Assembly (NCBI GenBank): GCA_001724265.1
Contig: MEDY01000193.1
Span: forward strand, 1-54,132
Direction: 5' to 3'
Source of the DNA: Rhizaria sp. SCN 62-66
Taxonomy: Eukaryota
DNA: 54,132 nucleotides
Shown here piece by piece: positions 1 to 53,837 of the stretch. Each line of letters opens with the position of its first letter. The first letter of the stretch is position 1. The notes beneath the pieces are model-generated. The model made no database searches and was not told the DNA's origin. It worked only from the letters and a program-made list of their open reading frames with translations. The translations under genes were made by a program, and so were the position numbers.

Positions 1-59
1 GACGGCGACGGCGGCGACGGCCACGACGGCGCTGCGGCCGAGGCCGAGGCGCGGGCGGG

Positions 60-94
<35 letters not shown>

Positions 95-2310: not shown

Positions 2311-2345
<35 letters not shown>

Positions 2346-17708: not shown

Positions 17709-17753
<45 letters not shown>

Positions 17754-18430
17754 TTTCAGCAGCAGCAGCAACAACAGCAACAGCACAATTCGGGCGCGAC
17801 TGATGCCTGGGGCAGTGGCGCCTGGACAGACCCACAGCAACAGCAGCAGCAGCAGCTGATTTACCATCAGAACAACAGCAACGGCGCTGCCGCCGGCGAT
17901 ACCGGTGCCCCCGGCTACTCGCTGCCCAAGCGGGCGCTGCACTCGCGCTCGCGCTCAGGCTCTGGCTCCGGCTCCGGCCTCGGAGGCGCGAATGCTAATA
18001 CTATCGTCAATTCTAACGCTAACCCGGGTGGTGCGAACGGCGGTCTCGCGGCGACGGCGCCGGTGGCGGCGATGGTGTTTCCCTTCCCCTTTGCCGCGCT
18101 CTCCCTCCATGGCACTAACAACAGCAACACTGCGAATACCAGCACAGCCATCGCGAACATCAGCTTAGCGCCGCCGCAGCATGCGCAGGGGGCGGCGCAG
18201 CGCCGCGGCCGCAGCGCTGCTTCCCGTCCCGGCACCAGCTCAGGGTCCTCCAGTGGCAGCGGCGGCGCCGCCAGCGGCAGTGGCAGCGGCAGCGGCGGCG
18301 GCGGCGGCGCTGGGGGCGGGGGCTATGGCTACGGGGAGATTCCCTTTAGCAACAAGGCCCGCGTGTCATCACAGCAACAACAACAGCAGCAACAGCATCA
18401 GCAGCAGCAATACGCTCAATACCAGTACCC

Positions 18431-18464
<34 letters not shown>

Positions 18465-18746
18465 GACAGCTTTTCTGCGACCGCCCCCGCTTCTAGCGCA
18501 GCGCCCGCGACGACCGCGACTGCGTAGGGCTCCCGGCCCGGCACGGCCGCCTCGGGCGCCGCGGCGGCACGGGCTACGGCCGCGGCCGCGGCGGCAGCAG
18601 CCTCCGCCGCCGCTGCCTCCGCCGCAGGCTATGGCAACAGCAGCGGCAGCGCAGTGGTCAGGCCCGCGTCTGGGTACTCTGTCTCGATTCCCTTCAGCTC
18701 CAACCTGAACAGCAACAGCAGCAATCGCGGTCACTACAATCAGCAG

Positions 18747-18782
<36 letters not shown>

Positions 18783-21700
18783 GCGCAGGCGCAGTTATGG
18801 GGCACCTGGGCTGCTCCGGTCTCTGTCCCGTTGCAAACGCACGCCAATAGCAATAACAATAACAACAACAGCAGCGGTCGCAACACCGTCTCTGGCTCTA
18901 GCTCTGGCTCTGCGTCCTCGCCCAGCTCTGGGGCCGGCCGCGGCCCTAGCTCCCCCCCGCCCGCGCGCCCCGACAGCGCCGCCGCCGCTAGCGCCAGCGC
19001 CAGCGCTGGCCATGGCGGTCACGGTAGCGGTCTGCGTACGCCGCGCCCGCCGCCCGGGCCGCCCGGCAGCGGCGCGGGCGCGGGCGCCGGCGGTCGCCTC
19101 ACCCCTCGCCGCATGGCCCCCTCCTCTGCGACGGGCTCGGCGACAGGCTCTGCAACCGCGTCTGCGTCGTCGTCGGCTGCCCACGGCCTCGGCGAGCCCG
19201 TCGCCCACAGCAATAACGGCATCAACAGCAATGCGCCGCAATACGGCGGCGGACGCGGCAGCGGCGGCAGCGGCTACGGCAGCACGTCGGGCTCGCCGCG
19301 CGCGTCCGCCCCCGCCACGCCGGCCCCCGGCTCCGGCGTGCTGGGTGTAAGTACCTCGGGCGGAAATGTAAGTACCGGCGTCAGCGGTATTGACCCCGCC
19401 GCCGCCGCCGCGTTCGGCTCGTTGCTGCGCTCCTCCCAACAGCAACAGCAGCAGCAGCAACAGTTTCAGCAGCAGCAGCAGCAGCAGCCGCGGCCTGCGA
19501 CCAGCATGCCACGCTCCCGCCCCCCGCCCTCGAACACTGTCAATTTCAACAGCGTCAACAGCAACGGCGCGGGTGCGGGGGTAGGTGGTTATGGCGCGGA
19601 GGCTGCGGTGCCAGTGCAGTCGCGACACGTGCCCACCCCGCGCAACGCCAGCGGCAGCCCCGACGTCGACAGCGGCAACAACGGCAACAGCAATAACGAC
19701 GGTAGTGGCAGTGGCAGTGCGGCGCCTCGCGCCCCCGCGTTCACGTTCGGCTCCAAGCCCGCGTTTGCCGCCAACGCCAGCGCTAGCGCTTCTGCCTCCG
19801 CTACAGCTGAGCCTACCAACGCCGCCGCTGCCACTGCTGCGGGCGAGGGCGCAGGCGCTGGCAGCGGGAGCAGCGGCGGGTCAATCGAGTGCCCCGAGCT
19901 GGCGCGCGTGGTGCCGCCCGCGACGACGAGCTCGAGCATCGCCGACTACGTGCTGGGCGAGGTCCTGGGCGAGGGCACCTTCGGCAAGGTGCGTCGCGGC
20001 ACGCATCGGCCGACGGGTGCGACCGTGGCCGTCAAGGTGCTGGAGCGTCGACGGATGGCGACCGAGGAGGACGCGGCGCGCGTATCGCGCGAGATTGCGC
20101 TGCTGTCGGCCGTAGACCACCCCAACGTGGTGCGGCTCTACGACGTGATCGCGACGCCCGCCGTGATCTACCTCATCATGGAATACTGCCCTCGCGGCCC
20201 ACTGTTTGACTTCATCGTTGCCAAGGGCCGCGTGTCGGAGCGCGAGGCGTGTCGCGTGCTGCACTGCATCCTCAACGGCGTCGCGCACTGCCACGCCGCC
20301 GACGTCGCTCACCGCGACCTCAAGCCCGAGAACGTGCTCCTCACCGATGACCCCGCCGTGGGGCTCAAGATCGTCGACTTCGGGCTCGGCAACCGCGCCG
20401 GCAACAACAGCAGCGGCGGCGACGGGCTGCTCAAGACGGCGTGCGGGTCGCCGTGCTATGCGGCGCCCGAGATGCTCGAGGGCCGCCGCTACCGGGGCCC
20501 GCTGGCCGACATGTGGTCTCTGGGCGTGATCCTCTACGCGCTGCTCTGCGGCTTCTTGCCCTTCGAGCACCCTAACACGAACAAGCTTTACAGCAAGATT
20601 AAGGCGGGCCGCTACGAGGTGCCATCGTTTGTCTCGGCGGGCGCGCGAGACCTCGTCTCGCGGCTGCTGACGACGGACCCCGCGCGGCGCTACACGCCCG
20701 CGCACGTGCGCGCGCACCCCTGGTACCGCGGGCTCGCCGTCCCCACCGATCCCGTCGTGCCGGGCGCCGCGCCGCTGCCGCCCGCCGCCGCCGCCGCGCG
20801 CCTGGGCGAGGACCCCTGGGCGGCACCCGACGCTGCCATCGTCGCCGACATGGTCGCAGGCGGCTACCAGCGCGCGGAGGTGCTGGCTGCGCTCGCCGGG
20901 CGCGTGCGCAGCCACGTCACCACGACCTACTTCCTGCTGCGCGCGCGGCTCCTGCGGGCGCTTGGCGCGCGCCACCCCGCGCCCATGTCCGGCTCCGTCG
21001 TCATCTCGCTCCCCGCGCCCTCCACCACCGCCACAGCGGCCAACCCCGCGGCGCCCTCCGCCGCTGCCGCTGCTGTCGCAGTCTCTGCTGCCGCCGCCGC
21101 CCCTGCGGCGGCCGTGGCTGCGGGTGTCGCCGTCACTGCCTCGCCCTCGCCCCGCGACAGCGCCACTTACCCCGCCACCGGCGCGAACGCTGCTGCTGCG
21201 TTTGCGAACGGCAACGGCAACGGCAGCGGTTCTGCTGCGGCGGCGGCGGCGTTCTCGCACCCCGCGCTGACTCAGCGCGCGGCGACGGCGCTGCCGCAGG
21301 GCGCCGGCGCTCCCATGGCCCACGGTCACTCCACTCTCACAGTCTCTAACGCCGTCGGCGTGAACGGCAACACTGCGCAAGCAGGCAGTAGCTCGAGCAG
21401 TGGCGCCGCGAGCACGGCGGTCAACGTCGCGTTCCGCGTCAGCGCGCCCGCCGCCGCCGGCCACCTCTACCTGCAGCAGCACACGCAACAGCAGCAGCAG
21501 CAGGGACTACAGCAGCAGAAGGCGCCGAGCCCGCCGCACGCGACGCCGCACGCGACGCTGCTGGCGGAGCGCGTGTCGAGTCCCCCCAGCCCCAGTCCCT
21601 CCTCGGCCGCCGCTGGCAACGCCGCCGCAGCCGCCGCCTCTGTTGCGGGGCCGCACGACCACCAGCAACAGCAGCACCAGCAGCAGTTGGACAACGGCGC

Positions 21701-22262
21701 TGGCGGCCGCTCGATGGCCTCGGCGGCGTCTGCGGCGACGACGGCGGCCGTGTCCACCTCGGCCTCCGCCGCGGGCTCTGCTGCGGGCTCCGGCTCGGGC
21801 TCTGCCTCGGGCACTGTACGCTCCTCGCGCGACAACGTTAGCGCCATCGCCGACACAGATGTAGACGCGGACGCGGATGACGTGCACGACAGCAGTGGCA
21901 GTCTGGGGCCCGAGGCCGCGACCACCCCGGCGGCGGCGCAGCAGCTGCAGCTGCAGAAGCAACAGCAGTACCAGCAGCAGCAGAAGCACGCGCAGTCAGA
22001 CCACGCGGCCAGCGGCCCTCTCGCTGCCTCCGCGCACGCCTCCGCGCTGCAGCGGCCGCCCACGGCCACGAGCGCGAGCGCGAGCGCGGCGTGGGCCGTG
22101 GCCTCGCAGGCCTTCGCTCCTGTCGTCGCCGGTGCGGGCGCGGGCGCTGGCGCTGCACACTCAGCGACTGCCACAAACGTCGCGCAGGAGGGCGAATACG
22201 GGGCACTGCGCAGGCCCGCCACGTCGGCGCGCGCGCGCGACCCCGTGGCGCCGCTGTCGTAA
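16428..22262 (+). CDS. SNF1/AMPK-family (CAMKL) Ser/Thr kinase with a UBA-like domain; about 1944 aa if the in-frame TAG at 18525-18527 is decoded
   Basis: The kinase domain (~19947-20725) has GEGTFGKV, VAVKVL, HRDLKPEN, DFG and LKTACGSPCYAAPE. A UBA-like segment ends HVTTTYFLL. ORFs 16428-18527 and 18654-22262 share one frame and are separated only by that TAG. The gene ends in TAA. Confidence 0.85.
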
Positions 22263-28033: not shown

Positions 28034-31000
28034 ATGTCTGACATCGCGGACATCATGGGCATGGGCCAGCGCCCCACGGCCGCCGCAGCCGCCGAAGCCC
28101 AAGCTCTGTCTCTAGCAACACACAACACTTCTGCTGTAGGCGGTGGAGGCACCAGCGCGAATGCGACGTTCCTCGCCCCCTCGGCCTCCAGCTCCGGCTC
28201 TGTCCCCGGCACCGGCACCAACACTGCGCAGACAGGCCCCTTGCCTCTTGCTGGCGGGGCGATATTCTCAGCCACGAAGAAAAAAGTGCGCAAGGTGCCC
28301 CGTGAGGTGGCATCGCTGATGCTCGGTTACGACGACCACCCAATCTACGAGCTGCAGGTACGCTATTTTCACAGCTTTGATGCCCGATATAGTTGCATAT
28401 TGCGATAAAACTTTGCTTTATTCTATACCTTGCCATTATTTATCTGTGGTTTAATTTTTTGTTTATAGATCTTAATATCCTCCAAGTTTTCTATACCTCA
28501 CTGATTCTTTCTTTCTCTCTCTCTTTCTCCGTGGACTCATTCGCTTTCTGTTGCGACCGCTCTAGGCCGAGGAACAGGCCCGCAAGGCCGCCCTCTCGGC
28601 TGCCACGGCCGCGGGCGTTAAGGGCAAGTTCAAGCCGGCCGTTAAGTGGCGTTGGGCGCCCATCATCTCCTCCTCGCGCCGCCGCGTCGTGGCAAACCCG
28701 GAGTCCGATATGCTCTCGCTCTACCACTGGAGCAAGACAGAGTCCGAGGCCATGGACTATCGGTTCGCGAAAAACCACAAAATGATTAAAATGGTCGACT
28801 ACACGGACGAGGAGTACCAAATGTTCGGCACCGTTGACCCCAGCTGGACGCGGGAGGAGACGGACGCGCTCTTTAAGTTAAGCCGGCGGCTCGACTTGCG
28901 CTTCCTTGTTGTTCAAGACCAACTAGACGACTATCTCAGCATCAAGAGCAACGCCAACAGTTCTAGCAGCTCTAACAGCACCAATAGCTCATCGAGCAGT
29001 AGCTCTGTTGCCATGACTGACGACAGCTCTAGCTCTAGCTCAATCTCAAGCTCTAGCGCTAGTGCGAGTGCTCCAGATTCTACTGCAACGGCTGCTGCTG
29101 CTGCTGGTGGCAGTGGTGGTAACCGTCGCGGTCGTTCTGGTGCTGCGAAAAGTGGAGAGGTGACCGTGAGCGCCGTCAACGCGGACAGCTTCACGATCAA
29201 GCCGGAAGAGCTAGAGCAAGAGCTGCTGCGTCAACAACAGCAAAACGCCACCAATACGAATCCTAATGGTCGCAGTAGCAGCAGCAGAGCTAATGTAAGT
29301 TTATTCTTTGGCCAACCAGTGAACTGCAACGCCTCCAGTAGTCATATCAGCAACAGCTCTACTATGAGTGCGAGTGGCAGTCATGGTGTCACGACAGCTG
29401 ATGCTGTTGCTTTGCTGCTGCAACAACACAATAGCACTGGCTACAGCTCTCGTCCCTCTTCTCGCCGCAACTCTATTGTCAGCAACAACAACAATTATAA
29501 TAATAATAACAAAAACACGTATGGTGCTGCCGCTGTTGCTGCTGCGAATGCTCCGACCAACATCAAAGTTAAGCCGGAGCCTGGCTTGGAAACAAAAGAT
29601 GACAGCAACAACGACGACAACGATAATAACGCTGCTTTAAGCTCGAATGCTAATAATGCAACTGCTGTCTCTTCCCGCCTCCCGAGCCGGACGTTGGAGG
29701 ATTTGAAGCTGCGTTTTTACTCTCTACAGTACTTGCTCCTGCGCCACCGCGCGGCCCACTTAGAGGATGTAAGTGCCCTCCCGGCGGCCTCCATTCCGTT
29801 TGAGGCCTACTTGGAGACTGTGCGCAAGCGGTTCGACGACGTGCAGACGCGGTCGGCGCTGTCAAAGCCGCCGCCGCCGCTGCCGCCGCCGCCGCCGCCG
29901 CGGCCCTTGCCCGCACTCATCCCGCCCGAGAGCTACGACCGGCAGCGTTGGCTGGGAGCCGCCAAGGCCGCCGCCGCCGCCGCTGCCGCCGCAGATGCTG
30001 ATGCGGCTGCTGCGACGGGGGACGGTGACAACGGTGTCAAGGCGGAGGGCGCGGATGTTAAGCCGGAGGGCGGGGATGTTAAGCCGTCTTCCGCTGCTGG
30101 TGCTGCTGCTGCTGCTGGGGGGAGGAGGACGAGTGGCCGGAATGTTAGTGCCCCCTTACCCACTGGTTCAACGCCCGCGAAGGGTAAGGGTGGCAAGGCC
30201 TCCTCCTCTAAGGGCGGTGCCAAGGGCAGCTCTAAGGGCAAAGACAACGATGACGCTAATGCGTCTGAGAATGACGACGACAACAACAGCAGTAGCGACA
30301 AGAGTGACGCCGACGACGAGGACGAGGACAAGGCGCCCAAACTTAAAGTCGAGGCCGAGGAAGATGATGGCATCGAAGAGGTACGCATTCATGCAGATCT
30401 CTTCCAAACAACAACAAAACTGCTGATTCCTTTTTACATTTCTCACATTAAATTATATCTTGACATTTTTTTCTCTAATTTTTCTCACAAATGATGATAT
30501 TTCAGGGCAAGCCGAACCCGCGCGCGTGGACGTACCCCCTCGAGTTCCCTCCCCACAGCACCAGCGCCGTAAGTCTGCTCACCGAGCTCGGCCTCCCGAC
30601 CGACACCAACATCAACACGCTGCTGACTGCGTTCGAGAACGAGAGCAAAGCGCTCGACGTCGGCATCAAGCGCGTGCGGAAGGCGTTCGCGGAGGGAGAG
30701 AAGCAGCAGAAGAGGCGGCTTAAGTTCCTGCAGAAGCAGGAGGCGCAGATGTTGAAGCTCGCGAATAAGGCTTCGGCTAAGGGGGCCCGGAAGGGCGGCG
30801 CCTTCGGCAAGAAGGGCGGCTTGACTTCCGGCGCCGAGGGGTACTTAGACGGAACTACCGGCGGCGCTGCTGCGGGTGGTGGCAGCGGTCACAGCGCCAA
30901 GAGGCATGGTTTCGCTGCTTTTGGCGGCGACAACGACGAGGACGATAGCGACGGCAACAACAACAACGATAACAGTGACGACGATGACACCGTGGACATC

Positions 31001-35595: not shown

Positions 35596-37793
35596 ATGTT
35601 CGTGGTTTTGCTTGGCCTCGCGCTGCTGCTGCTACTCACCGGCTTCAGCGTCGTCCGCTACTACAGCGAGAAGACGACCGCCCACCCCTTATCGACCCTG
35701 ACAACGTCCCTCGCGCTCGCGTGCTCGCTCGCGTGCGTGCTCCTGATCCCGCTCGACGTCTTCGTCACCTCGGGCGCCGCCGCCGACGCCGCCGCAGCCG
35801 CGGCCGCCGCTGCCGCAGCCGCGGTGGTTAATAAGGCCGGCTCTGCAGCCTCTGCCTCCGCCGCCAGCACCAGCGCCGGCGCCCACCTCGCATCGCTGCT
35901 CGCGCCCGTCGCTGCGCCGGTGTTCGAGAACCTCAACGGACTCCTGATCAAGAACGCTTACTACGTCCTTTTTGCGGTTATTGCGACACTGGCGTTTTTC
36001 TTGCTGCCTTTTTCGTACTTTTTCGTCGAGGATGCCAACGACGATGACGACCTCTTCAACCAAGGCGGCGGCCGCAGCGGCGGCTGCTTCGACCGCTCGA
36101 TCAACTCCCTCCGCAACACCGCCATCTTCATTGCCGTCCTCGTGCTCTGCGTCGTCTTCGCTCTGTTCTACACTCCCGTCACAGCCAGCCTCCGCACCGA
36201 GGACCCGGCCAAACTTAAAGACGTGCACCATTGGGTCGACACCATCCTCCACGAGTGGGACGCCAACGCCCTAGAGCGTGGCCTAACTTTGGCGATCGGC
36301 GCCATGACCGTGCTCGGCCTACTCAACCTCTGCTACTACACTGCCTACGGGCTCGTCGCGCTGCCCGTCGCGCTGCTCAAGCGGCGGCCTAACTTAGAGT
36401 CGCAGCAGCTCTCGGTCGAGTACAACGCCATCACCCAACAGCAGAAGATCGCCCTGCTTGAGGAGAAGCTCTCCGACTCGACGCTCACCAGCGCCAAGCT
36501 GCGCGCGAAATTCTCCGAAGAGCTGCAAATTCTCCGCACACAGCACCGCGCCAACGCCAAGCGCCACGAGCGGCTGCAGAGCCAGAGCGCCTCCGAGAAC
36601 TCGTGCTCCGTCGACTGTGTCGCCACTACCGCGTGGAAGTGGCTCTACCCGCTCCGCTTTGCTATCGGGCTTGCACTGCTGGCGGTCGCCGCCAGCGTCG
36701 CGCTCGCGCTAGCGCTGTCGGGCGCCGACAAGCTCCTCCACTCGGGCTGCGGGCTCAAATGCGGCTTTATCTTAAACACGCCGGCGTGGGGGTTCAACCC
36801 CGTGGATATGCTGCTGCTGTACATCTCCCGCTTTTTCCCGCTGGATTTTGTCGTTTTCACTGTCTTTACGGTCTATATGCTGGTGTGCACGCTCTACGGC
36901 ATCATCACACTCGGTATCCGCGTCTTTGGGTTCCAGGTGTTCAAAGTTAAGCCGCGCCGCACGTGGCCCCAAGCACTGCTGCTGCTGTGCGCAATCGTGA
37001 TGTTTACTCTGCTCGGTATCATGGTGCAAACGCTCACTATCGCGCCCCAGTACGCCACCTTTGGCCGCCAGACATACCTCGCCGCGGCTGACAGCAACGG
37101 CTTGCTTTCCAACGCAGGCGGCTTACCTTCCGCGTCCGATGCGGCGTCGCTGAGCAAGGAGATGTATCTGCCGTGCACTCTGTCGCAGTCGACCCGCGTA
37201 GCGACCACGCTCGCGGCCTCTGGTAGGGCCAGTGACGCGGTGACGCACACGCAGTGCCTGCCCACGCGCCTCTCAAAGGTCACCGCGAGGTACGTGCATA
37301 TCGCGCCATATATACGCACTGTAAATTGCAAAAATATAAGTGTGTCTATAACGTTTTTTACTATTGTTTTATTTTGATATGTCTTTATCTCAGTGTGAAC
37401 AACACACTTTTCGTCACGTTGGCTCACTGTTGCTGATTGCTGCCTGCTGTTGCTTTCTCTTGTTGTATGTTTAGGTTGACTGTGACGTACCCGATTTTTT
37501 CAGTCCTCTTCTTCTGCGCGCAGTGGCTGTTCGTGGCCATGATTGTCGGCACCGGGGTCCTCCGCTGCATGCGTTCTGGTAACTCGAGCGGAACCTCTGG
37601 GTCGAGCAGCTACGACGACGAAGAAGGCGGCAACCGCCACAAGGACTACGACGACGACAACGACGACGACGACGAAGACAGCGCCAGTGACGACGATCAC
37701 GGCAAGAGCCGTGGCGGCGGCCGCAGTGGCAGCGGCAGTGCCTATATGCCGCTGAGGTCCAACGCGTCCTCGCGCCGCGGGCTACTAAAGTGA
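35596..37793 (+). CDS. LMBRD1: LMBR1-family membrane protein, LMBRD1 (lysosomal cobalamin exporter escort)-like, 670 aa; exons 35596-37289, 37475-37793
   Basis: Multiple TM segments, plus LIPLDVF, FFLLPFSYFF.E, YTAYGLVALP, CGLKCGFIL..NPVD..FPLDF and APQYATFGRQ. Intron 37290-37474. The gene ends in TGA. Confidence 0.85.
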
Positions 37794-38832: not shown

Positions 38833-41652
38833 TTACATGCTGACCTTGACGACCTTCCACTGGAAGATGCATTTGTCGCCGCCGCCGGCAGAGAAAAGAT
38901 AGCGTTCGGTCAGGTCGAAGCGGATGCGCGGGACGTGCGCCGAGTGGCCCTTGTGGGCGCGGAAGCCGTTGTCGGGCTTGGCCGTAGGCGTGTCCTTGGC
39001 GGCGGGGAAGCGAAAGAGGTTCACCAGGCCTTCGTCGGTGCCGCAGGCAACGAGAGTGCGCGAGGGGGACGCGTCGACGCAGTTGATGTTGCTGTAGTCC
39101 TGCTCCTCGCTGCCGTCACCCTTGCGCCAGATGCCCATCACGGACCAGTCGAACTTGACCGAGACGGTGGCCCACGCAACGTCCTTGACCAGCGTTGCCG
39201 ACCGCTCCTGCGCGCTGTTCTTGAGCGCGCCCTCATCAATGGCGTGGTAAAGCAGCTCGTACGACAGCGAGATGGAGCGCAGGTAGGCGCTGTCGGTGCT
39301 GAAGTCGATGGCGAGTACGGCGGCCGTATGCTCCGTGAGCACCTTCTGCACCTTGTAGCCCGCGTCAACCGAGAGCAGGCAGATGCAGATGCCGTGCGTG
39401 CCGACCGCAAGCGTGCGGCCTGAGGGCGAGTAGCGCAGCGTCTCGATCCAGTTCTGGCTCTGGTTCGCCACCTGCCGCTTCCCGTGCGGGTTGAGGTCCA
39501 CGTACGCGACGCGCTCTAAGGTCGCGGCATCGAACACGGCCAGGAAGCCCTCGTTGGTGCCGACCGCAAGATGCTTGCCATCGGGCGAGTAGTCGATCGC
39601 GCGCGCCATCTGGTTGATGGGGAACGAGCTCGTCGTGCTCGCCGTGTTCACCTTGGGCATCTTGCCCTTGACAGTGTTGATCGGCGCCACCGCGACGGCC
39701 TGCTTGGTCGCCGAGTCCCACACGCACACCTGGTTGTCCTCGCCCACCGTAGCGTAGTGCGTGTTCCGGGGGTGCGGCGCCAGGCCCCAAACCTCGCCGT
39801 CGAAGTGCCCCCGCATCACCGGCGCGGGCAGCTGCTGGTAGTTCACGCTCGTGCCCAACGGCTCCTGCTTGTCGTAGGGAATCTCAAAGATCTCGCTGCC
39901 GCGCGTGCCAATAAGCAGGTCGCCATACGCGTTCGAGGACACAGAGCGCACGGCGTACTGGAACTCGGCCTGCCAGACGGGCTTGAGCTGCGAATCGAGC
40001 ACACACACGCGCCGGTCGTCGCCGCCCGTCACGAAGTGCTTGCCTTGTGGCGTGATGCTGTTGATCTTGCTCTCGTGCACGTGGAACACCTTGCGCGCGG
40101 TCCCGCGGACGTAGACATACACGCCGCCGTCGCCGCCCGCGATGAGCGTCTGGTTGCCCGTGAGCGTGTACACGGCGTGGGTATAAAGCTGGCGCGGCAC
40201 GTTGGTCATCGCGTTCTTGTTCTTGAGCTTGCCGGACGCGGCGTCGAAGGTCCAGAAGGCAATGTGGCAGTTGCCCACGGTCACGAGCTCGTCGCTCGCG
40301 CTCGTGGGGTTCCACGCAATGCTCAGGATAGACGTCTTGGCCGCACCTGTGGGCGTGCAAGTGTACAAGCAAGCAAGCAAAGAAAGGAATTAAGACAATA
40401 CAAATTAGGAATATGACATTTTTAGAATGTAAAAATTAACAGAAAGATTTTGAACAGTAAAAGATTGTTATTTGTCAAAATGTATCATTGTACGTCTTGA
40501 TACAAGTGAGATATAGCGTAATATTGTACGTACTGGGCCCGGAGGCGATCTGCTTGCCGCCCTTGACCTTCCAGTCCCACACGGTGACCGTGAGCTTATC
40601 GTCGCACGTGGCCGTGGCGAGGTAGTTGCCGCAGGGCGAAAACGCCAGCGCCGTGATGGCGCGCACACCAGCGTTCTCGATCTTCCACTGTTCGCGGGTG
40701 ACGGTATTGTGGATGCAGATCGACGGCGGGGCGGAGCGGCCGTTCTCCACGGTGGCGATCTGACCGGTGGCGACGATGTTGGGGTCCTTGGGGTGCTGCG
40801 TCAGGGAGACAACGTCGTCGTTGTGGCCCGTAAAGAAGGTCTGGGCGCGCGTCTCGGGGTCCATCGTGATAACGAGCGCCGCCGCAGGGTACACGATGTG
40901 GCCCTGAGACAGGAGGGGGGAGAATGAAGAGAAAACAACAAAATTGACCGTCCGATAACAAATATAAACGGTTAGCGAGATGAAAGTTTAGTTCAGTAGT
41001 GATTCGTGTAGTTATACATCGTTTGATGAAGAATAAACTTGATTGGTGTTGATTAAAAATGTTAGAAGTTGCATTTCGTGAAAGTGGAATTTGAAGCATC
41101 TACGAAAACGGCAAGTCACAAAAGAGCGAACAGAGTCCGCAAGACAAACTGAAAACAAAACAAAACTTGTGCAGTAGATGAAAAACACTACTTAACACTA
41201 GAACAACAGAAATAAATCTTCTTATAATGTTATATGCTGGAGATATCGTGAATGAACCGTACCTCTGCGTTGTAGATGAGGTTGTTGCGGGAGTCGTGGC
41301 AGCGGTATCCGTGGACAAAGTCCAGCGACAGCCCCTGGGAGGGTGCGCTCTTGTTGATGGGGGGCGCGTTCGACGGCGCGACCTTGACAACGCCCAGGAA
41401 CGGCTTGACAGCGAGGCCACGCGTGGCGCTAGTCTCTCCAGCTTCGCCGTTCTCGAGGAGCTCAAGCTCGGCCTCGATCTCATCGCGGGTGCGGAAAACG
41501 CCCTCTTCGTCGTCGGGATTGGGCTCAGAGCTCTCGTCGATGGCAACGTCAAGATCTTCGTCAATCGGGGTCGCCGCGCGGGGCGGGGACGGCGCGGCGG
41601 GGGCCGGCGCGGGGGTCGGGGCGGAGGTGGACGGGCCGGGGAGGGCAGGCAT
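38833..41652 (-). CDS. Echinoderm microtubule-associated protein-like (EML/EMAP; HELP + WD40 TAPE domain), ~757 aa; exons 41652-41263, 40903-40534, 40346-38833
   Basis: HELP motif APSQGLSLDFVHGYRCHDSRNNL, plus FFTGHNDDV, GHFDGEVWGLAPHP, GHSAHV and SAGGGDKCIFQW. The gene ends in TAA. The start is uncertain because a candidate acceptor at 41664 could indicate an upstream exon. Confidence 0.9.
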
Positions 41653-42621
41653 CGAACCTCGGTCTGGGGCGAGACGTAATACATGGGTGAGAAAGAGACT
41701 TAGCAACGAAATATTAAAACTTCAAAGAGAAACATCAATTAATAATCTAGAGTCGCGCTTAGAAGCCGAAGTGTCGAGAGGATACAGCATGACAGAAGTG
41801 GGCAGAAATCGTAACTTTGAACGGGCCAGTCTCTGAGGAGCTGCCACCCGTTACGATTTCGTTTCGACGGCAGGGCCGAAAAAAGACCGGCGAACGATGA
41901 ACGAACGAAGCGGAGGTCGCTGACTGGGACTGATTCATGGGGTGATATTAGTAGGTCGCAGGGAGAGGTAAAATGGCCGTCTATTACGAAAGTACAGTGT
42001 GTCTAGGAGATAATATGCTTGAAAGTGCCGTTAGTCGTCATTACTGCAATGCAGCTGGCTGTATAGGTGTCGGTATCTTGAGTCTCATATCCCCCTTTAG
42101 AACCCCTCTGCTCACCCCCTTTCGTGTCTCTCTTCGTCCCTTTGCACGCCTTGTCTCGCACAGCTACGCCAACAAAACCACGCTGTCAGCAAACAACTTG
42201 TACGTTTGTGTGTTTTCATTGCGGTACCGGTTTCTGTTTGCTTTACCCCGGCCCCAGAGCCCCCTCTGAAGGCAACCCTCTCACAGGCCCTGTCGCTGTG
42301 TCTCTTGAGCACTGCTCTCTCTCTGTCTCGCCAGCGCCTGCAAGTCTGCCCCGTGTTGCAGCAACAGCAATAGTGTCTGCGCTAGAGCAATAGCCCTTCT
42401 GTGAGCTTGCACTGCTGTCGTTTCTCGCCGCAACAACAACAACAACACCAGCGCGTCAGGTCATTTCTTCGTCACTATCCAGCTCACACGCAAGTCGACA
42501 GGAGAATTTGGACGTATTGAGGCACAACAAGCGATATACCTGCTGACACCGACAACAACCGCTCTATCTCTTCTTGTTTTAACTGTCGTAGCCTTGCGCG
42601 GCTGCTGAGCTTTAAAGCAAG
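41653..42621. promoter_or_regulatory. Divergent promoter region between the EML gene and the STK32-like kinase
   Basis: Head-to-head arrangement spanning about 970 bp, with a short (CAA)n tract near 42431 in the kinase leader. Confidence 0.45.
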
Positions 42622-44356
42622 ATGGGAGGTTGTTTGAGTCAGCAACAGCCCATGCCGAACCCCGACCGGGTCGACATGACGCACTTCGAAGAGGTACGTA
42701 CAGATCTGCAGAACTATAATATTCGCATAACAAACCACACCCCTAATGGCCACCTATAGATTCCACTCCAAACTCCAGCCATACCTGTTTCTTGTTTCCA
42801 CTTTACACTCAAAATTTCATCTTGCCAAATCTCACCAATCGTCCCCGTATTAATTATTGTTTTGCCTCTGCACTCTGCTGTTGCTTAGTACCAAACGATC
42901 GGCCGCGGCGGCTTTGGCACCGTCGTCGCCGTCGCCAAGCGCGACCCCGTGACCGGCAAGTGCCCGCCCCAGAGCCCCGAAAACCCTCTGTACGCGCTCA
43001 AGCGCATGGCCAAGGCCAAGGTGGCGCAGTCGCAGGTCAACGTCGACATGGTATGGCGCGAGCGCGAGATCATGATCATCAACACCGAGACGCTGCGCTC
43101 GCCGTTCCTCTGCTCGCTGCACTGGGCGTTCCAGTCGCCCGCGGAGCTGTTTCTCATTATGGAGTTCATGCAGGGCGGCGACCTCAAGTACCAGATGCGC
43201 GATAAGAAAAACACCAGCAAAGTCAAGCCGCTGGGCGAGGACGTGGCCAAGTTCTACTGCGCGGAGATCCTGCTGGCGCTGCGGGCGCTGCATTCGGTCA
43301 GCATCGTGTACCGCGACCTCAAGCCCGAGAACGCGCTGCTTGACTCGGAGGGGCATCTCAGGCTCGCAGACTTCGGCATCGCGACAAACTTGCAGCGCAA
43401 CAACGGGTTCAAGACCTCGGGACGCAGTGGTACGCTCATTAACCTGTGAATGATAACAATTGAGCCCAAAACGCTTGACTGCTATCACTCTTTCGACTCA
43501 CTGCCGATAGTGCTAAATGTGACTATATATCACTAGATGCATTCGTATTAAAACAAAATTGATATAATATATGTTTAATACCACAAATATTGATGTAATT
43601 TTTTGCTAAATCTCATCGATATATGCTACATAATTATGTTGTTGTTTTCTCATTTGACACTCTCGCAGGCACGTACAGCTACATGTCGCCCGAGATGCTG
43701 CTGCGCGACGAATACGGCACCGAGGTCGACCTCTGGGCCCTGGGCGTGACGTTGTACGAGCTGCTCCACGCCGACCTGCCTTTCCCGTCGCTCAGCCAAT
43801 CCGCGTCCGAGGAACAGATCAAGGCGCATTTTTCGGTCCCTCTCTCGTTCCACTCTAGCCTAAGCAAGGAAGTCAAGCACTTGCTCACGCGGCTCCTGCA
43901 CCCCGACCCCGCCAGGCGGCTTACCTTGTGCTCGCAAGCCATCGAACACCCCTTCTTCGCCTCCATCAACTGGCCCCTTCTCAAGCGCAAGGAAGTCAAG
44001 CCGCCCATCACACCCGAGCAGGGCGTCGCCAATTGCACTGCCGCCGCGGCGCTCGAGGTCGCCTTCATGGACGAGCCGCTGCGGCCCGTGTCGGCCGAGC
44101 TCCAGGAGCTGTTCAGCGAGTACGAGTATGTGCGGCCCAACCTGACGCGGCTGCAGCGTCGCGGCACGGTGCGGGACGCAACCACGGCCGGCGTGCCCAG
44201 CGACATCATGCGGACCAACAGGGAGAATGTGGAGCAAGAGTGGGAGGTCATGCAGCAGGAGCATGACAAGCACGAGAAACAACAACAGGAAGTCGCTGCC
44301 GCCGCCGCCGCCGCTGCTGCTGCCTCTGAGCTCGATCAGGAGCCAACAGGACAAGG

Positions 44357-44388
<32 letters not shown>

Positions 44389-45101
44389 GGAGGGGGAGTG
44401 CCAGCGCCGGCGCTAGTGCTCGCGGCAGTGAAAGGAGGAACTCTGCGTCGACCTCTAAAGGTGCTGGCGGCCACGCGACCCCTTTAGACGGCGTAAGTAC
44501 CCCTTCGGAGCAGCGCAACTCCCCACGGCTTCGCGCCCGGGCCAGCGCCAGTGCGAGTGCCAATGGTGGAGTTGGCGGCAGCAGCAGCAGCCGCAACCCC
44601 AGCCGCAGCCCCAGTCTATCCCCTGTCCCTGATAACAATGTAAGTGGCGGGTACAACGCTCTAAGTGCCACCACGAAGTCCAGCCCTAGTCCCAGCCCGA
44701 GCCCCCGACTCAATCCTCAAAACAACAACAGCAACAACAACAACAACTACAACGCGAGCACGAGCACGAGTACGAGCGTCAATAGTAACGGGCGGGGGAT
44801 AGTTGCGCTCAACTTAGACGGCAACAATAACAACAGCAACAACAACAACAACAACCAGAGCCGTGCGAGCAGCCGCGCCCACAGTCGTCAGCCCAGCCTC
44901 GGCGGCAACGGCAACAACATCAACAACATCAACAGCAACAGCAGCAGTGGGAATGCGACGAGTAATAGCGCCAGTCCCAGCAACGCGATGGTGGGGATTG
45001 AGATTGACAGCGTTGTCATCGGCCCTATCGGCAGCAACGGCGGCGGCACGAAGACGAAGGAGGGCAGCGGCAGCGGTCGAAAGAAGGGCGGGAAGAAATA
45101 A
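42622..45101 (+). CDS. AGC-group Ser/Thr kinase, STK32/YANK-like, 681 aa; exons 42622-42693, 42889-43429, 43669-45101
   Basis: MGGCLS..VDMTHFEE|YQTIGRGGFGTV, YALKRM, MQGGDLKY, YRDLKPENALLD, DFG, G|TYSYMSPE, and an AGC tail KPPITP..ANC. Both introns are GTACG..AG and in frame. The gene ends in TAA. Confidence 0.85.
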
Positions 45102-46822
45102 GTGTTTACACATCATCTAAGTAAGTGGCACTGACACTGAAGCGCGCTGTCTCGAGTTAATTCCGACTTCGCTGAATGAGTAGAGTAGCGGTGACCAGCT
45201 TGGTGAAGCAACCCTTGCTGTAGTGTTATTTCGTGTTGGATCCGTAATGAAACTCACTGCTTTCTGAATAATTACTGACGCATTCGTGCAGTTCGTGCTG
45301 TCATTGTTGTTGTTGCCTTTCCTTCGGATTTTCTTTCGGATTTTCTTTTTCGTAATTTGTAATTCATTAGTTTTGATTCTGTCCGCCTCCTTTTCTCTTT
45401 CCCTTCCTTTTTGTTTGCTTTCTCTTTCCCCCCCTCCTTCTCTTATCATTTGTAGTGACTAAGTTTGCTCGATACTGGTTGCTCGATACTGGCTTTCTCC
45501 GTATTTGCTTGATTTCCGTTTGTATTTTTCCCTCTATATATATATCTATACTAGCTCTAATAACCCTCTAATACTTCCCTTAGAATATGATGTGTCTTAT
45601 TTGTTGATCCCTTTTTGTGTCTTTTCACAAGCAAAGGATTGTGTGTGTTGAGTTGTGTTGTTACTCGTCTCATCAATTTTTCAGTGGGCTTTATATTAGT
45701 CTTATATTAGCGTCTTATAGTCAATTTTTGCGTAGGTTGTTTTAAGCGCCGTTTTCTGTGTTATGTCTCTATGTTTGTTGTATGATGTACATCGATGTAA
45801 TTACGTATATCAGTTATATTGTCGTGTCACTGCTCTCATACAAAGGTACCTTTTTCTGCTGAGCAGTCGCACCGTTTTAAAGATGACAAACAGTAGTCTC
45901 ACTTCGATCTGTCATTGTATCGCCGCATAAATATGTATGTTATAAATTGCTTAATTTAGTGATTCTTGAAACTACTCCGATCTTAACCAAGCTTTATCAC
46001 TTAAACACCACTTATCTTTTCGATGTTGTAACAAAACTTACTTTTAAGCATAACATGCGCAAATCAAGTATAATTTTGTCAAGACAAACACATAGTATGG
46101 AATACACTATTTTAAATAAATCACTTTGAAATTACTTTTACTCCTTATGACTACATGGATATACCGCGACTTTTGTGATCTTTTCAAGTGAATCAACAAG
46201 CACTGCGCCTGCTCACAGTCACCTACTCCGGCTGACTCGCTCTTGCCTTCGACCAAGCGAGGGCGCACTTTATACTATCTGATCTCACTATTAAGAACGT
46301 CATTATGCTCAGTAATTGGACCTAAGAGAAAAAGTATTTTTGAAATGCTCCATCTTTATTTCCTATTAATTTATGCCCCGTTCTTGACGCCTATATCTTA
46401 CTTTTCCACCGACCTACGTCGCCCTCTTCTTCGATCGCTTGCGCTCTCTCCCACAGCCTCCTACACTCTCACACCAACACCACTTGTTTGTGCTTCACAA
46501 CAAAGCAAGCTTTTCCGCTTGTTTTCTACGTGACCCCGACCCCCAGAGCCCCTGGTGTCTGGTTTCTGTCTTGTTAAGCGCGGTTCTACGCAGCCTTAGC
46601 GTGCTTCATATCAGGCAGAACTCGATCTTTCCTTTCACTCTTGCTACAGAAACGCCGTCGGTTGCTTTCTTTCTGCTCTCAGCACAACTAGCTCCTTCTT
46701 GTAGTGCGCTACAACTCTACGTTGCTCGCACTTCAAGCAGCCTTTGCGAACCCTGTTACCTATCGCATAACAGCTCCTCCTCCTCCCACCTTTCACGAAC
46801 CTCTCTCTCTGACCACGACAAC

Positions 46823-49183
46823 ATGAGTGCCCAGCTCTCGACCGGCGCCCTCAACCTTGAGGCCTTCAAGGAACACGCCGTCAAGGAGCTCTGCGCGCTC
46901 CTCGACTCTTTCCCGGGCGACAAGGCCCTCGTGATCGACCCCGCGCTCTCGGGCCCTCTTGGCCTCGTGGTCTCGGTCAAGACTATGCGACAGCACGGCG
47001 TCACCGAGTTCATGCTGCTCAACGCGCCCACGCTCAACACCAACTGCGGCAACGTCATCTATATCACGCGCCCCGAGCCCGAGCTCATGCCACTCATCGC
47101 CAGCCAGATCCAGTCGCGCCTCGCCCGCACCAGTACTATGGGCGGCGGCGGCGGCGCAAACTCAAACCGTGGGCCCAACAACGCTGCCGCGGCGGGCACC
47201 AACTACGGCGTGTACTTCACCCCGCGCCGCACGCTGCTGTGCGAGAAGGCGCTGGCGGACCTGGGCGTGAGCGACTACGTGCAGACGGGCGAGTTTCAGC
47301 TCGATCTCATCCCCTTCGAGTCAGACACGCTATCTCTAGAGCTGCCCGGAGCGTTCCGCGAGTGCTTCATCGAGGGTGACCCGTCATCGCTTATGGTTGT
47401 GGCGCGCGCGCTTGTCAGGCTCCAGTCCATTTATGGCATCATTCCACTCGTCAAGGGCAAGGGCAATGCCGCTCACAGGGTGATGCAGCTTATGCACCGC
47501 CTAAAGGCAGAGCTCAACAGCAGCTCTAGCAACAGCGGCACTGGCAGCAACGCGGTGGACGTTGTCGGCGGGCATATCTTGCCGCAGATTGAGCAACTCG
47601 TGCTCATCGACCGCGCCACTGACCTGCTTTCGCCGTGTTTAACACAGTTCACGTATGAAGGACTGTTGGATGAGCTGTTCCGCATCAAGAACGGCAGCAT
47701 CGAGGTCGAGAAGGAGAAGGAGACCAAGGACGGCGAAGTTAAGCCGCCCGGCGCGGGAGCTAAGCCGCCCGTAATGGAGAAGAAAAAGCTTCCCCTCAAC
47801 TCGAGCGACATCCTTTTCACCGAGATCCGCGACCTCTCGTTCCGCGGGCTCGGCGGGCTGCTGCACCGCAAGGCGGAGCACATCAAGGAGACCTACGCAG
47901 AGCGCCACGCCGCGCAGTCTGTGCAGGAGATGCACTCATTCCTGGCCAAGTTCAAGATCGCCCACCAGGAGCACACGCTGCTGCAGTCCCACATCGGGCT
48001 CGCCGAGAAGGTCTCACTCGCCGTCCGCACCAAGGCCTTTGACCGGCGGCTCGAAATGGAGCGGCTCATCCTCTCTGGCGACGAGCAGTCGCTGGTGGAA
48101 GACTACCTCGAGGACATGATCGGGCAAAAGCAGCCTTTCCCGGCCGTTTTGCGCGTTCTGACGCTCATTTCACACACCACAGGTGTCAACAAGCGCAAAA
48201 TCGACCACTTCAAGCGCGAAATCGTACAGACCTACGGCTACCAGCACGCGCTGACGCTCAACGCGCTCGAGCGCCTGTCGGTGCTGCCGAAGCAGCCGCG
48301 GCGCGTGGACTGGACCAAACTCCGCCGGCAGCTGCGCCTCATCGAGCCCGTCCACGAGAATGGCGGCAACAACGCTAACGACAGCACCTCTGCCGGCGGC
48401 GGCGGCGGCGCTGGCGGCCAGACTCTGAACCCTTTAGCGAACGGCTCGCTGTGGCCGGTGGCGGTCAACCAGGATTACTACGCGCAGTTCAACGGCGTTG
48501 CCCCGTTGTCCGTGCGCGTGATCGAGATCGCGTCCCAGCCTGCGGGGCTGCGCAAGTGGGACGAGCTGGTCTCGCAGCTGCCCGGCAAGGCGTTCGAGTA
48601 CCGCCAGACGCTGCCGGCAACAGTGAGCTGCCGCATGCTGCCCGTGCCCGGCTACGACCTCGCGGCGCCCGCTGCGGCGTGTTTGGATGGCACGGCGACG
48701 GCGACGTCCACGACCGCCGCCGCTGCCGCAGCTGCAGCCGCCGCCGCAGCCGCTGCCACAGAAGGAGGGTCTAGTGCCGTCGCCGCTGCTGCTGCTGCCG
48801 CTGCTGCCGCCGCCGCTGCTGCTGGCAACTCTGGTCTGAGCTCCGGCATCAGCAGCAGTGTCAGCAGCAGTGTCAGCAGCAGTGAGCTGCTGAGCGGTGT
48901 CGTGTGGCGCAACAGCAACCCCAGCGCCAACGCCGCGGGCGCCGACGGGCAGGAGGACGACGACGACAGCAACGGCGGCGGCGGGAAGAAGAAGCCCGTC
49001 ACTCTGGTCTTCTTCATCGGCGGCGTGACGTTTGCCGAGATCAGCGCGCTGCGGCAGCTGAGCGAGAACGAGTATCACAACCGGGAGTACATCGTTGCCA
49101 CCACGAAGCTCATCAACGGGACCACCATGTTCGAGACGGCGTTTCCCGAGATTGAGAACCACTTGCAGCGCAACACGCTCTAA
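46823..49183 (+). CDS. VPS33: Sec1/Munc18-family vacuolar sorting protein VPS33 (786 aa, intronless)
   Basis: LLDSFPGDKALVIDPALSGPLGL, YFTPRRTLLCE, DLIPFESDTLSLE, LIDRATDLLSPCLTQFTYEGLLDE and LVFFIGGVTFAEISALR. The first ATG is at 46823, in the ORF-track frame. The gene ends in TAA. Confidence 0.95.
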   Translation: MSAQLSTGALNLEAFKEHAVKELCALLDSFPGDKALVIDPALSGPLGLVVSVKTMRQHGVTEFMLLNAPTLNTNCGNVIYITRPEPELMPLIASQIQSRLARTSTMGGGGGANSNRGPNNAAAAGTNYGVYFTPRRTLLCEKALADLGVSDYVQTGEFQLDLIPFESDTLSLELPGAFRECFIEGDPSSLMVVARALVRLQSIYGIIPLVKGKGNAAHRVMQLMHRLKAELNSSSSNSGTGSNAVDVVGGHILPQIEQLVLIDRATDLLSPCLTQFTYEGLLDELFRIKNGSIEVEKEKETKDGEVKPPGAGAKPPVMEKKKLPLNSSDILFTEIRDLSFRGLGGLLHRKAEHIKETYAERHAAQSVQEMHSFLAKFKIAHQEHTLLQSHIGLAEKVSLAVRTKAFDRRLEMERLILSGDEQSLVEDYLEDMIGQKQPFPAVLRVLTLISHTTGVNKRKIDHFKREIVQTYGYQHALTLNALERLSVLPKQPRRVDWTKLRRQLRLIEPVHENGGNNANDSTSAGGGGGAGGQTLNPLANGSLWPVAVNQDYYAQFNGVAPLSVRVIEIASQPAGLRKWDELVSQLPGKAFEYRQTLPATVSCRMLPVPGYDLAAPAAACLDGTATATSTTAAAAAAAAAAAAAATEGGSSAVAAAAAAAAAAAAAAGNSGLSSGISSSVSSSVSSSELLSGVVWRNSNPSANAAGADGQEDDDDSNGGGGKKKPVTLVFFIGGVTFAEISALRQLSENEYHNREYIVATTKLINGTTMFETAFPEIENHLQRNTL

Positions 49184-49651
49184 GTTCTCTTTTGAGCGCG
49201 CTAAGTACCGAGCACGTACCCCCTTAGACTGAGACGTGACGTCTTCGAGGTGGAGATTTGTTGTCACCTCAGCTCTTAAGCTTAAGTGTGATTCAGATAC
49301 AAGAAGTTTGTTCTGTTGATATATATTTTACTCGAGAGTGTTTCAAGTTATATTTTGTTATGAGCTGTATGCTATAAATGTATTTGATGCAAAGTTAATG
49401 TTTATCGAATATAAAGCCCGAATGAATTCCTCATTTATTATTAAGTTTGCTTACTCTGATCTTACTCTGATCTGACTTGTTCACATCCACTGTTCGTGAT
49501 TGATTTAAAGCTCGTGTTTTAGTGGCATATCTAGGTCCTAAATTGGAATATAATAAAATCAGTAAGTGTATTCTTCTGTCTAAGTATCGAGATATAAGTA
49601 TCTTTGTAAAAGTATAATCAAGTTCGCGACAGTAGCTGAACTACATTAGCT

Positions 49652-50561
49652 TTAGTAATAATAGTGCTGTTGCTGTTGCTGCTGCTCTTGCTCTTGCTGC
49701 AGCTATTGTTGTTGCTGCAACAGCGACAACACCCCTTTAGCCCGGCTAAGTGTTTCTTCCTGCTGCTGTACGACCCGCAGCAGCAGCGCCTCCTGGTGTC
49801 GCTGCTGCTCACGGTCACTGCCAGCGGTGTTGACAGCGAAAGTGCGGCTATCCCCCACAGGAAACGGCGACTGCGCCTGCGAATGTGGGCTACTGCTGCT
49901 CAAAATCTGTGGCGGCGGCTGAGAGCACAGCTGCGACAGCGACAGCGACGGCTGCTGCTACTGCTGCTGCTGTTGTTGTTGCTGTTGTGAATCATAGCTG
50001 TTGTAACTGTTGTTGTTGTAAGGGGCTTGCGGCGTCTGATGATACCTGCAGTTGCCTCCGCGTAAGTACGACATCGGGGGCTGTAAGGGTGCCGCGTACT
50101 TAGCCGTCGGGTTCAGGGGGTACTTAGACTCCGGGTAAGGGTGCTGGCTGTGTGCGACGCCGCAGCTCGCACGACTGTGAGCGCCTGAGAACCCCTGGGC
50201 AACACGTGAGTGACCGTGAACAGCAGCAGCAGCAGCAGCAGTACCACCACCATAGCTGTTGTTGTTCTGCGAAGTACTTACATCGGTGTAAGTGTCTCCG
50301 TCGGAGAACATTGTGGGGTAGAACACGTAACGGCCAGTGCTGTAATCAACGTAGCCGCTGTTGCTGTCACTGCTGCTGCTGCCGCTGCTGCCGCTGCTGT
50401 AGCTGTTGTAGCCTTGATGGGAGCCCGCGTTAGAGCTGGCAACGGAGCTACTAATGGTGTTGTGCATGTGGCTCGTGCTGTTCGTGTTGTTGTTGCTGTT
50501 ATAGCTGTTATTTGATGACACTGGGAAAGGTCCGCGAGGTTGCGGCCTCTGCTGCCAAGAC

Positions 50562-50617
<56 letters not shown>

Positions 50618-50973
50618 ACTGCGACTGCTGCTCCTGTTGCTGCCTCCCGCGCCGCGGTTCGCGTAATCACGATTGCTGCTACCACTGCTAATGCGCGACC
50701 GGGCGGCCGCAGAGCCATAGCCAGAGGAGGGGCCAGGGTGGGGCTTGGAGCGGGACAGAGTGCTGGGAGTGTTTTCGATTGCGGCGAGGCGCTCGTAGTG
50801 CTTTTGCATGTTTTTGTACACCATGGTCTTGCCAGACACGCTATATAGCGACATGGGAGAGACACATAACGAGGCATTGCGTTAGTATTGAGCTGAAAGA
50901 GTAAAGAGAGAGAGAGTTTAGCAAGGCGATGAAGGGAAACGTACTTGTTCTTATCGGGAAGAAACAGAGGCAT
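49652..50973 (-). CDS. Gln/Ser-rich uncharacterised protein, ~405 aa, containing two in-frame TAG codons; exons 50973-50945, 50840-49652
   Basis: Exon 1 (MPLFLPDKN) is joined in frame to VSGKTMVYKNMQKHYERL by a GTACGT..TAG intron (50944-50841) containing TACTAAC. The same frame continues through TAG 49960-49958 and TAG 49705-49703 to TAA 49654-49652, after which the DNA becomes AT-rich. Confidence 0.68.
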
Positions 50974-51370
50974 TCTTCTCAACCCCTACTCGTATAATTG
51001 AAAAGGATAACAAGTGTCTCTTGCTTTTATTCCGAACTAGTCCTTGAATTCCCTTTGACGGACTTTTGAACGAATCGCTATTCAAAACGAAACAAATATA
51101 AGCTCACCTCACGATTCACTGCGCCACAGCAAACGCGTGTTTCATTTATCAAAGTTCATAAACGTACCTACACATCGTCGCTTGATATCAATTCTTTGAT
51201 ATTATCTGTATTATCACATAATTTTTCATAAAACATTCCAAAACAACAAACCACCATCATCAAACAACACAGCCAGTCATTTTCTTCTTCCAAGAAGCAG
51301 CATTAGATGCTGTTGCTAACGAATGAAGCTCTAGCTTGTTCGCTAGCTTCGCTTCGTCGCCGCAACACGC

Positions 51371-53298
<1,928 letters not shown>

Positions 53299-53837
53299 GG
53301 AGGGTAGAGTTCTGAGTTGGGTCAGCAGAGAGAAAAGCAAGGCAGTAGAGGGAAAAGATGAGCACTTGTGGAGTCATAAGTATGATATATAAAGCAATGC
53401 TTAAAATAAGCGCAGATTCTCATAAAGAGATCACTGTGAGTCGATGGGAAAGTGGCCTAATCAAAGAGGGAAATGGGCTGATTGATCTGTTTGACCCGTT
53501 GCTCTTTTTGTGGTCGGGGCTTTTCTGCGAACCGAAGTCGAAAATCCTATTTTGGCTCACGGTCATCGGCTGGCGGCGAGAGCTGGGCGTGAGAAGCGAG
53601 GCGATTTTGAGACGTCTTTCTCGTTCATTGTGTCCGCGTTTGTCAAATGTTGTCTTGCGATATAGACTGTCCTTGAGGTGGAGAATTTAGCTATGATACT
53701 CGCATTTCGCCTATGCCATGTTTTGTGCTCCAAGTACCTCTCTCGCACCTGCCGCTCACCCAGCCTTGTTTGCCTTTGCTCTCGCCTTCCATTTTGCCCC
53801 CCGTTTCCGTCCGATCTCGCCTCTCCCCCCCAGGTCG
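53299..53837. promoter_or_regulatory. Compact divergent promoter/5'UTR region between RPT3 and RPL26
   Basis: The two start codons are head-to-head and 539 bp apart, with pyrimidine-rich leaders on each sense strand. No specific element was identified. Confidence 0.55.

Follow-up and report, generated by a model that had tools for sequence, protein, structure and literature searches.

Possible translation of UAG, probably as glutamine, in a GC-rich eukaryote from wastewater metagenomes

We identify three in-frame TAG codons in two of the 11 genes modelled in a 54,132-nucleotide stretch of eukaryotic DNA (the window, by which we mean the whole stretch analysed). No TAA or TGA stands in frame in any exon, and the 11 gene ends are all TAA (seven) or TGA (four), with TAG serving at none of them. 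We give about an even chance to the reading that UAG is translated in this organism, probably as glutamine, with UAA and UGA still acting as stops, an arrangement known from Iotanema. One 54-kb window is insufficient as proof that TAG stands for an amino acid. Two of the three codons lie in the glutamine-rich tail of a low-complexity gene for which the protein collections searched yielded no homologue, and the third interrupts the gene of a protein kinase at a site outside any glutamine run.

The eukaryotic origin of the window is judged from its gene content. Domains recognized in its long open reading frames (ORFs) include a full protein kinase, IFT80, an EML-like protein with a HELP motif, VPS33/Sec1, LMBR1, SANT/DAMP1 and the proteasome ATPase Rpt3. 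The presence of IFT80 and EML genes suggests that the organism is flagellated. The GC content of the genes is approximately 0.55-0.77 per kb, with dense CAG-type repeats coding for poly-Q, poly-A and poly-S, and the spacers and short introns are AT-rich (GC 0.28-0.45). Positions 1-22300 have a GC content of 68-77% and contain very long ORFs (2803, 1201 and 1998 codons), which are mostly of low complexity (poly-A, poly-Q, poly-S, poly-G and poly-N). The antisense strands in this region also carry long ORFs that score weakly as coding, for example the one at +12734-14782 opposite gene B, in which a TAG is the sole interruption; such ORFs call for caution with frame-based arguments in this genome. 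Two plus-strand ORFs in the same region (1-8412 and 8522-10534) probably belong to a single gene, with the intron at 8383-8521 between them, and a partial match to the cyclin N-terminal domain (E=2.5e-4, below the Pfam cut-off) lies immediately before the junction. The EML-like gene (38833-41721, minus strand) has at least two introns, with exon matches at 41565-41263, 40966-40514 and 40344-38857. Its relative P0003, from a 14-kb contig of another metagenome, is 83% identical and is called as a single uninterrupted ORF of 746 residues, so that intron content seems to differ between close relatives.

The public runs that hold parts of the window are wastewater, bioreactor and sludge metagenomes. 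Eighteen runs are listed, from 11 studies; 16 of the 18 contain part of the window and four contain at least half of the sampled words, and none of the listed holder runs is recorded as RNA. Protein matches carry the names of chytrids, an oomycete, alveolates and others, at 31-55% identity. Within the window there are no matches to Eimeria-like telomere-type heptamers, no tRNA genes and no matches to Rfam families. Queries with VPS33 and EML gave no match among genome contigs, and the EML relative gave none among viral contigs.

A first-pass annotation of the window had described two in-frame TAG codons inside CAG/CAA runs of one minus-strand gene, here called gene J. Re-reading the strand gives exactly these codons, and the translation contains both of the reported protein contexts, SQQQQQQQQQ*QQPSL and LLQQQQ*LQQEQEQQQQQQHYYY. 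The first TAG (49960-49958, minus strand; codon 304 of the spliced gene) reads CAG CAG CAG TAG CAG CAG CCG, with glutamine codons on both sides. The second (49705-49703, minus strand; codon 389), 85 codons past the first, reads CAA CAA CAA TAG CTG CAG CAA, with a glutamine codon upstream and a leucine codon downstream. Both have C at +4. Sixteen further codons (CTG CAG CAA GAG CAA GAG CAG CAG CAA CAG CAA CAG CAC TAT TAT TAC) lead from the second TAG to a TAA at 49654-49652, which is likely the true terminator of the gene; it has A at +4 and is backed by a second in-frame TAA two codons further on.

Exon 2 of gene J (49655-50840, minus strand) encodes a low-complexity protein, and 16.7% of its codons are of the glutamine type. 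It is preceded by a 104-nt intron (50944-50841; GTACGT...TACTAAC...TATAG) and by a 29-nt coding part of exon 1 (50945-50973), whose ATG at 50973-50971 is read from the sequence. The two exons join in frame to give an ORF of 405 codons. A contig from a cDNA run (X6) links 50945 directly to 50840, with the intron precisely removed, and this is the sole intron in the window with confirmation from a spliced contig. Because the splice is exact, we take the contig to be a transcript and gene J to be probably transcribed; the run itself is labelled "RNA? (probably DNA)". An X6 contig is unspliced through 50256-50355, which rules out the GTAAGT at 50281 as a splice donor. Among the X6 contigs listed, none crosses either TAG. 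Apparent "joints" of 260-275 nt between the poly-Q runs of gene J have short anchors (18-27 nt a side) and were judged to be repeat cross-matches from other loci. A further in-frame TAG lies at 50988-50986 (minus strand), five codons upstream of the proposed ATG, and the upstream frame is not closed if TAG is a sense codon. Gene J has no Pfam family. A word-indexed search scored 8000 candidate homologues, with none at E<=0.001; HMMER found no match among 1.84 billion representative proteins; and in an exact look-up, three versions of the gene J protein were absent from the protein collection.

Verification of the bases had also been called for, and the TAG codons recur unchanged in several assembled contigs. 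Two contigs from metagenomes match the window at 100% identity, L001 (9808 nt) over positions 43694-53501 and L002 (1140 nt) over 49101-50240. These were the two confirmed among 340 stretches matched in a metagenome scan; both are identical copies, and the scan yielded no diverged orthologous DNA of the window. A contig present in two further sets (X1 and X2) spans 49300-49980, including both TAGs, with no differences; X1 and X2 look like a single data set filed twice, which may be the window's own source. A contig from another study (X4) spans 49300-49934 with one difference, at 49437. Since the X4 contig contains the second TAG, this codon has been seen independently, in a study dated ten years after the earliest holder. 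We found no contig of an independent study that bridges the first TAG. No variant letters are listed at the TAG positions. Contigs of 70-190 kb occur in the public runs X1-X4.

Does coding continue past the TAG codons of gene J? It had been proposed that coding-style sequence extends in frame past both of them and that the switch to AT-rich DNA comes only after the TAA. The switch is where it was placed, with a GC content of 0.32 in the 150 nt beyond the TAA. Coding-style sequence is supported beyond the first TAG, in the same frame, by codon score and by a GC content of 0.63 in the following 150 nt. Between the second TAG and the TAA (48 nt) the GC content is 0.48. We scored the 84 codons between the two TAGs (49706-49957, minus strand) with a frame-specific codon model trained on the other long ORFs of the window. 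Their own frame scores best (-4.02 per codon, against -4.26 and -4.31 for the other two frames, which contain one and six stops). The log-likelihood margin of 19.7 is matched by 15 of 5000 shuffles and by none of 128 out-of-frame coding windows for each shifted frame. It falls inside the range of true coding windows (5th-95th percentile 10.4-57.8, 128 windows), in their lowest 13%, and is reached by 9.4% of the best antisense frames. The frame-specific codon signature of these 84 codons is not chance. The open frame of the 101-codon tail is weak evidence taken alone, because 1215 of 5000 dinucleotide-preserving shuffles are also without in-frame TAA or TGA. From the codon score and from the GC content after the first TAG as compared with that after gene ends, we conclude that the tail of gene J is coding, or was so until recently.

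The third TAG (18525-18527, plus strand; GCG ACT GCG TAG GGC TCC) is stronger evidence for translation of TAG than the two in gene J. It is the only interruption of gene C (16428-22262, plus strand), a CAMKL/SNF1-like protein kinase gene of 1944 codons that ends in TAA, and it lies outside any glutamine run, in an Ala/Thr-rich stretch (TATA*GSRPG) with G at +4. The ORF at 16266-22262 contains a full-length Pfam Pkinase match (E=2.8e-70; residues 1228-1486; profile positions 1-262 of 263), and the kinase domain is therefore presumably translated. Both flanks of the TAG have coding-type scores, and in one shared frame. Of 2000 shuffles of the 300 preceding codons, 11 remain without any stop; for the 473 codons between the TAG and the kinase domain, the number is 2 of 2000. 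The GC content is 0.81 in the 150 nt after the TAG; there is no AT-rich spacer at the site, and neither an AT-rich spacer nor a promoter-like region was found between the two halves of the gene. The codon has the form of a 3' splice site (TAG/G), a role that the lack of any GTACG-type donor upstream argues against. In principle, expression of gene C could begin at an internal start. In the related kinase P0028 the N-terminal extension is shorter, at approximately 750 residues, and the part of gene C upstream of the TAG aligns with nothing in P0028.

The ends of the 11 genes were placed by us, from the strongest coding ORFs adjoining AT-rich spacers. Those of Rpt3 and EML coincide with the C-termini of homologues (two of the 11 ends are confirmed in this way), and those of IFT80 and LMBR1 are less certain. 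The GC content is 0.31-0.52 in the 150 nt after each end, no accepted terminator is directly followed by GC-rich coding-like sequence (0 of 11), and 10 of the 11 ends have a purine at +4. Eleven ends are a small sample: assuming that TAG normally terminates 15-30% of genes, its absence from all of them would arise by chance 2-17% of the time.

The placed introns are short (approximately 100-240 nt) and AT-rich (GC 0.30-0.38), with an unusually uniform GTACG donor and a YAG/G acceptor, often TAG/G or CAG/G. On the plus strand, the introns at 8383-8521 and 28358-28565 both have the GTACG donor and end in TAG/G acceptors (8519-8521 and 28563-28565); the other plus-strand introns placed are at 30381-30505, 37290-37503 and 43430-43668. 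Several other TAGs that appear to be in frame were set aside: those at 8519 and 28563 are 3' splice sites, and those at 52674 and neighbouring positions are splice acceptors or intron-internal.

The codon counts limit how freely TAG can be used. Among the approximately 668 glutamine-type codons of the 11 coding segments, three are TAG (approximately 0.4%), 527 CAG and 138 CAA. In the comparable first-position synonymous pair TTG/CTG the counts are 71 and 327 (18%), so that TAG is approximately 30 times rarer than expected of a neutral synonym; substantial sense use of UAG is not seen within the 54 kb. From this rarity in comparison with TTG/CTG, we conclude that TAG is either under negative selection or became permissible only very recently. 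The first-pass annotation had considered TAG to behave as a synonym of CAG/CAA. This survives insofar as the gene J sites match glutamine sites, none of the 11 genes ends in TAG and a third case exists in gene C, but at 3 to 527 and 138 TAG is far from a free synonym.

Which amino acid would be inserted? In the window, 42% of glutamine codons are themselves preceded by a glutamine codon, with His the next residue at 11% and Glu at 6.6%. Two of the three TAGs follow a glutamine codon, a neighbour pattern that favours Gln approximately ninefold over His and 25-fold over Glu. Glutamine is therefore the best guess if TAG is a sense codon. Glutamine neighbours are equally expected from C>T changes of CAG, regardless of decoding. 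None of the three TAGs falls in an alignable conserved position: no homologue of gene J was found, and the N-terminal region of gene C could be aligned with no other sequence. Gene J has the highest proportion of glutamine-type codons of the 11 segments, and gene C, with 7.9%, the third highest.

The standard code could apply with all three TAGs as real stops. Gene J would then encode 303 residues, its 101-codon tail recently stranded and decaying, and gene C would be truncated or split, its kinase part either initiated internally or not produced. No nonsense mutation arises more easily than C>T within a CAG run, CAG codons are much the most frequent target (527), and disordered poly-Q tails are often dispensable. 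As for the gene J tail, its open frame is not significant when taken alone, it scores near the bottom of the coding windows, and no homologue shows it conserved. Also in favour of this explanation are the shorter extension of P0028 and the lack of any alignment with it upstream of the third TAG. We nevertheless regard this explanation as unlikely. It needs fixed nonsense mutations in two of 11 genes within 54 kb of a compact genome, unaccompanied by a frameshift, TAA or TGA, and it needs GC-rich coding-like sequence right after these stops, an arrangement seen at none of the 11 terminators. Furthermore, the halves of gene C have no AT-rich spacer or promoter-like region between them, and the second TAG of gene J is the same in the strain of another study.

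Leaky stops under the standard code are another explanation. A near-cognate tRNA-Gln(CUG) would read UAG at a few per cent in glutamine-rich mRNA, yielding mostly truncated protein and a minority of full-length product with Gln inserted. In a yeast study, premature stops in a QXQ motif within Q-rich transcripts show approximately 2-8% readthrough with insertion of Gln, and the efficiency rises with Gln content (PMC13192750). The first TAG of gene J is an exact QXQ site, with Gln on both sides; the second has Gln on one side (CAA TAG CTG) and the third on neither. Leakiness would explain the rarity of TAG. Both gene J codons have C at +4, and gene J is the most Q-rich gene (16.7%), with gene C ranking third (7.9%). 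It fits poorly with the third TAG (GCG TAG GGC), which has no Gln neighbour and has G at +4. Readthrough of a few per cent or less there would leave little kinase, though the domain is intact, and in gene J, where a ribosome would have to pass two such stops, full-length product would amount to well under 1%. The absence of TAG terminators (0 of 11) is left unexplained as well. Programmed UAG readthrough, of the retroviral gag-pol type, involves a stable RNA structure shortly downstream of the stop. Folding of the 120 nt from each TAG gave structure no better than that of shuffles (z = +0.89, +0.98 and +0.25), and the lack of a stimulatory structure after any of them is a further point against leaky stops. 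On balance we consider this explanation unlikely as well.

Finally, an artefact, whether a sequencing or assembly error in trinucleotide repeats or unrecognized introns, is very improbable: the gene J TAGs do fall within or next to CAG/CAA repeats, at which short-read assemblies break off (the X1 and X4 contigs end at 49934-49980), and several true 3' splice sites have the same TAG/G form as the gene C codon (8519-8521 and 28563-28565), but the same bases recur in the window, L001, L002 and X1/X2, and for the second TAG also in X4, with no variant letters listed, the surroundings of all three codons are GC-rich and score as coding, a cDNA-run contig is unspliced through 50256-50355, and the introns of this window are AT-rich (GC 0.30-0.38) with GTACG donors, none of which lies upstream of the third TAG.

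We return to the reading in which UAG is translated. It would account for three otherwise undamaged interrupted frames in two of 11 genes, for the kinase site without glutamine context and for the missing TAG terminators, and we give it about even odds. A dedicated UAG-reading tRNA would most likely insert Gln, with UAA and UGA kept as stops. Gene J would then be translated as one ORF of 405 codons, from the ATG at 50973 across the intron at 50944-50841 to the TAA at 49654-49652. Its two TAGs would have arisen from CAG by C>T inside poly-Q runs, changes that would be silent or nearly so. Three elements of this scheme are inferred: that UAG is translated, which amino acid it specifies and that a suppressor tRNA exists. 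As TAG makes up approximately 0.4% of glutamine-type codons, the change would have to be young or the decoding inefficient. A more specific proposal, which we put forward only tentatively and think doubtful, is an early, ambiguous-intermediate stage of a UAG-to-Gln change in a GC-rich, CAG-repeat-rich flagellate outside the ciliates, in which UAG has been lost as a terminator and is translated, while still approximately 30 times under neutral usage. At such a stage UAG would survive mainly where mutation of CAG runs supplies TAG and disordered sequence tolerates it. Heavy poly-Q usage, together with an abundant tRNA-Gln(CUG) that misreads UAG, could have opened the way to reassignment.

If UAG is indeed translated here, the UAG-only glutamine codes would gain a further member and a separate origin, in a GC-rich, uncultured eukaryote of wastewater that is unrelated to the known cases. 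The very low usage of TAG would hint at an early or inefficient stage and could show the first steps of a stop-codon takeover, with a possible link between extreme poly-glutamine content, misreading of UAG by tRNA-Gln and change of the code. There would also be a practical consequence: gene prediction under the standard code would cut short or split this organism's genes, which is what happens here to the kinase gene and gene J. Should the TAGs prove to be nonsense codons that the organism tolerates, the locus would parallel, in nature, the recently described glutamine-context readthrough of yeast. In the literature searched we found no description of a wastewater or activated-sludge eukaryote with UAG reassignment.

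How does the window compare with known systems? Its likeness to yeast QXQ readthrough (PMC13192750) consists of a stop in a poly-Q run, a very Q-rich gene and C at +4, and the Gln-containing product would be the same as under reassignment. The yeast case is a leak of 2-8% under the standard code, studied with laboratory nonsense alleles, whereas the TAGs of the window are fixed in a natural population. Unlike in yeast, one of the three TAGs is without Gln context, and TAG is missing from the 11 terminators. A stop-to-glutamine change involving UAG is shared with the codes in which UAR means Gln, which PMC5304391 lists for many ciliates, hexamitid diplomonads, some ulvophytes, Streblomastix and Amoeboaphelidium. 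In those codes UAA is also Gln, whereas in the window TAA ends seven of 11 genes with an immediate drop in GC and never stands in frame in an exon.

Going by PMC5304391 and PMC11687900, nuclear codes in which UAG alone has become a sense codon are known from very few lineages, namely Iotanema, one rhizarian and a small number of ciliates. Among the ciliates, PMC11687900 assigns UAG to Gln, with UAA as the preferred stop, in the phyllopharyngeans Hartmannula sinica and Trochilia petrani. Both make wide use of the reassigned codon, and suppressor tRNAs have been identified in their Leu-coding relatives (same source). Like these species, the window would have UAG alone reassigned to Gln and UAA as its fixed stop; unlike them, it uses the reassigned codon rarely, and no tRNA was found in it. 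The window does not appear ciliate-like in its organization, being a multi-gene 54-kb contig with genes of 60-77% GC and spliceosomal introns with GTACG donors.

In the nuclear code of Iotanema spirale, UAG means Gln, and UAA and UGA terminate (Panek et al. 2017, PMC5304391). There UAG accounts for approximately 8% of Gln codons, and its assignment drew on many conserved positions in alignments (PMC5304391), as against approximately 0.4% and no alignable site in the window. Iotanema is an anaerobic fornicate known from its transcriptome, whereas the organism of the window has GC-rich DNA with many CAG repeats and comes from metagenomes of wastewater and bioreactors. In both, UAG alone of the three stops would be a sense codon, most likely for Gln, and a minority codon for it, with UAA as the main terminator (seven of 11 gene ends here) and UGA serving too.
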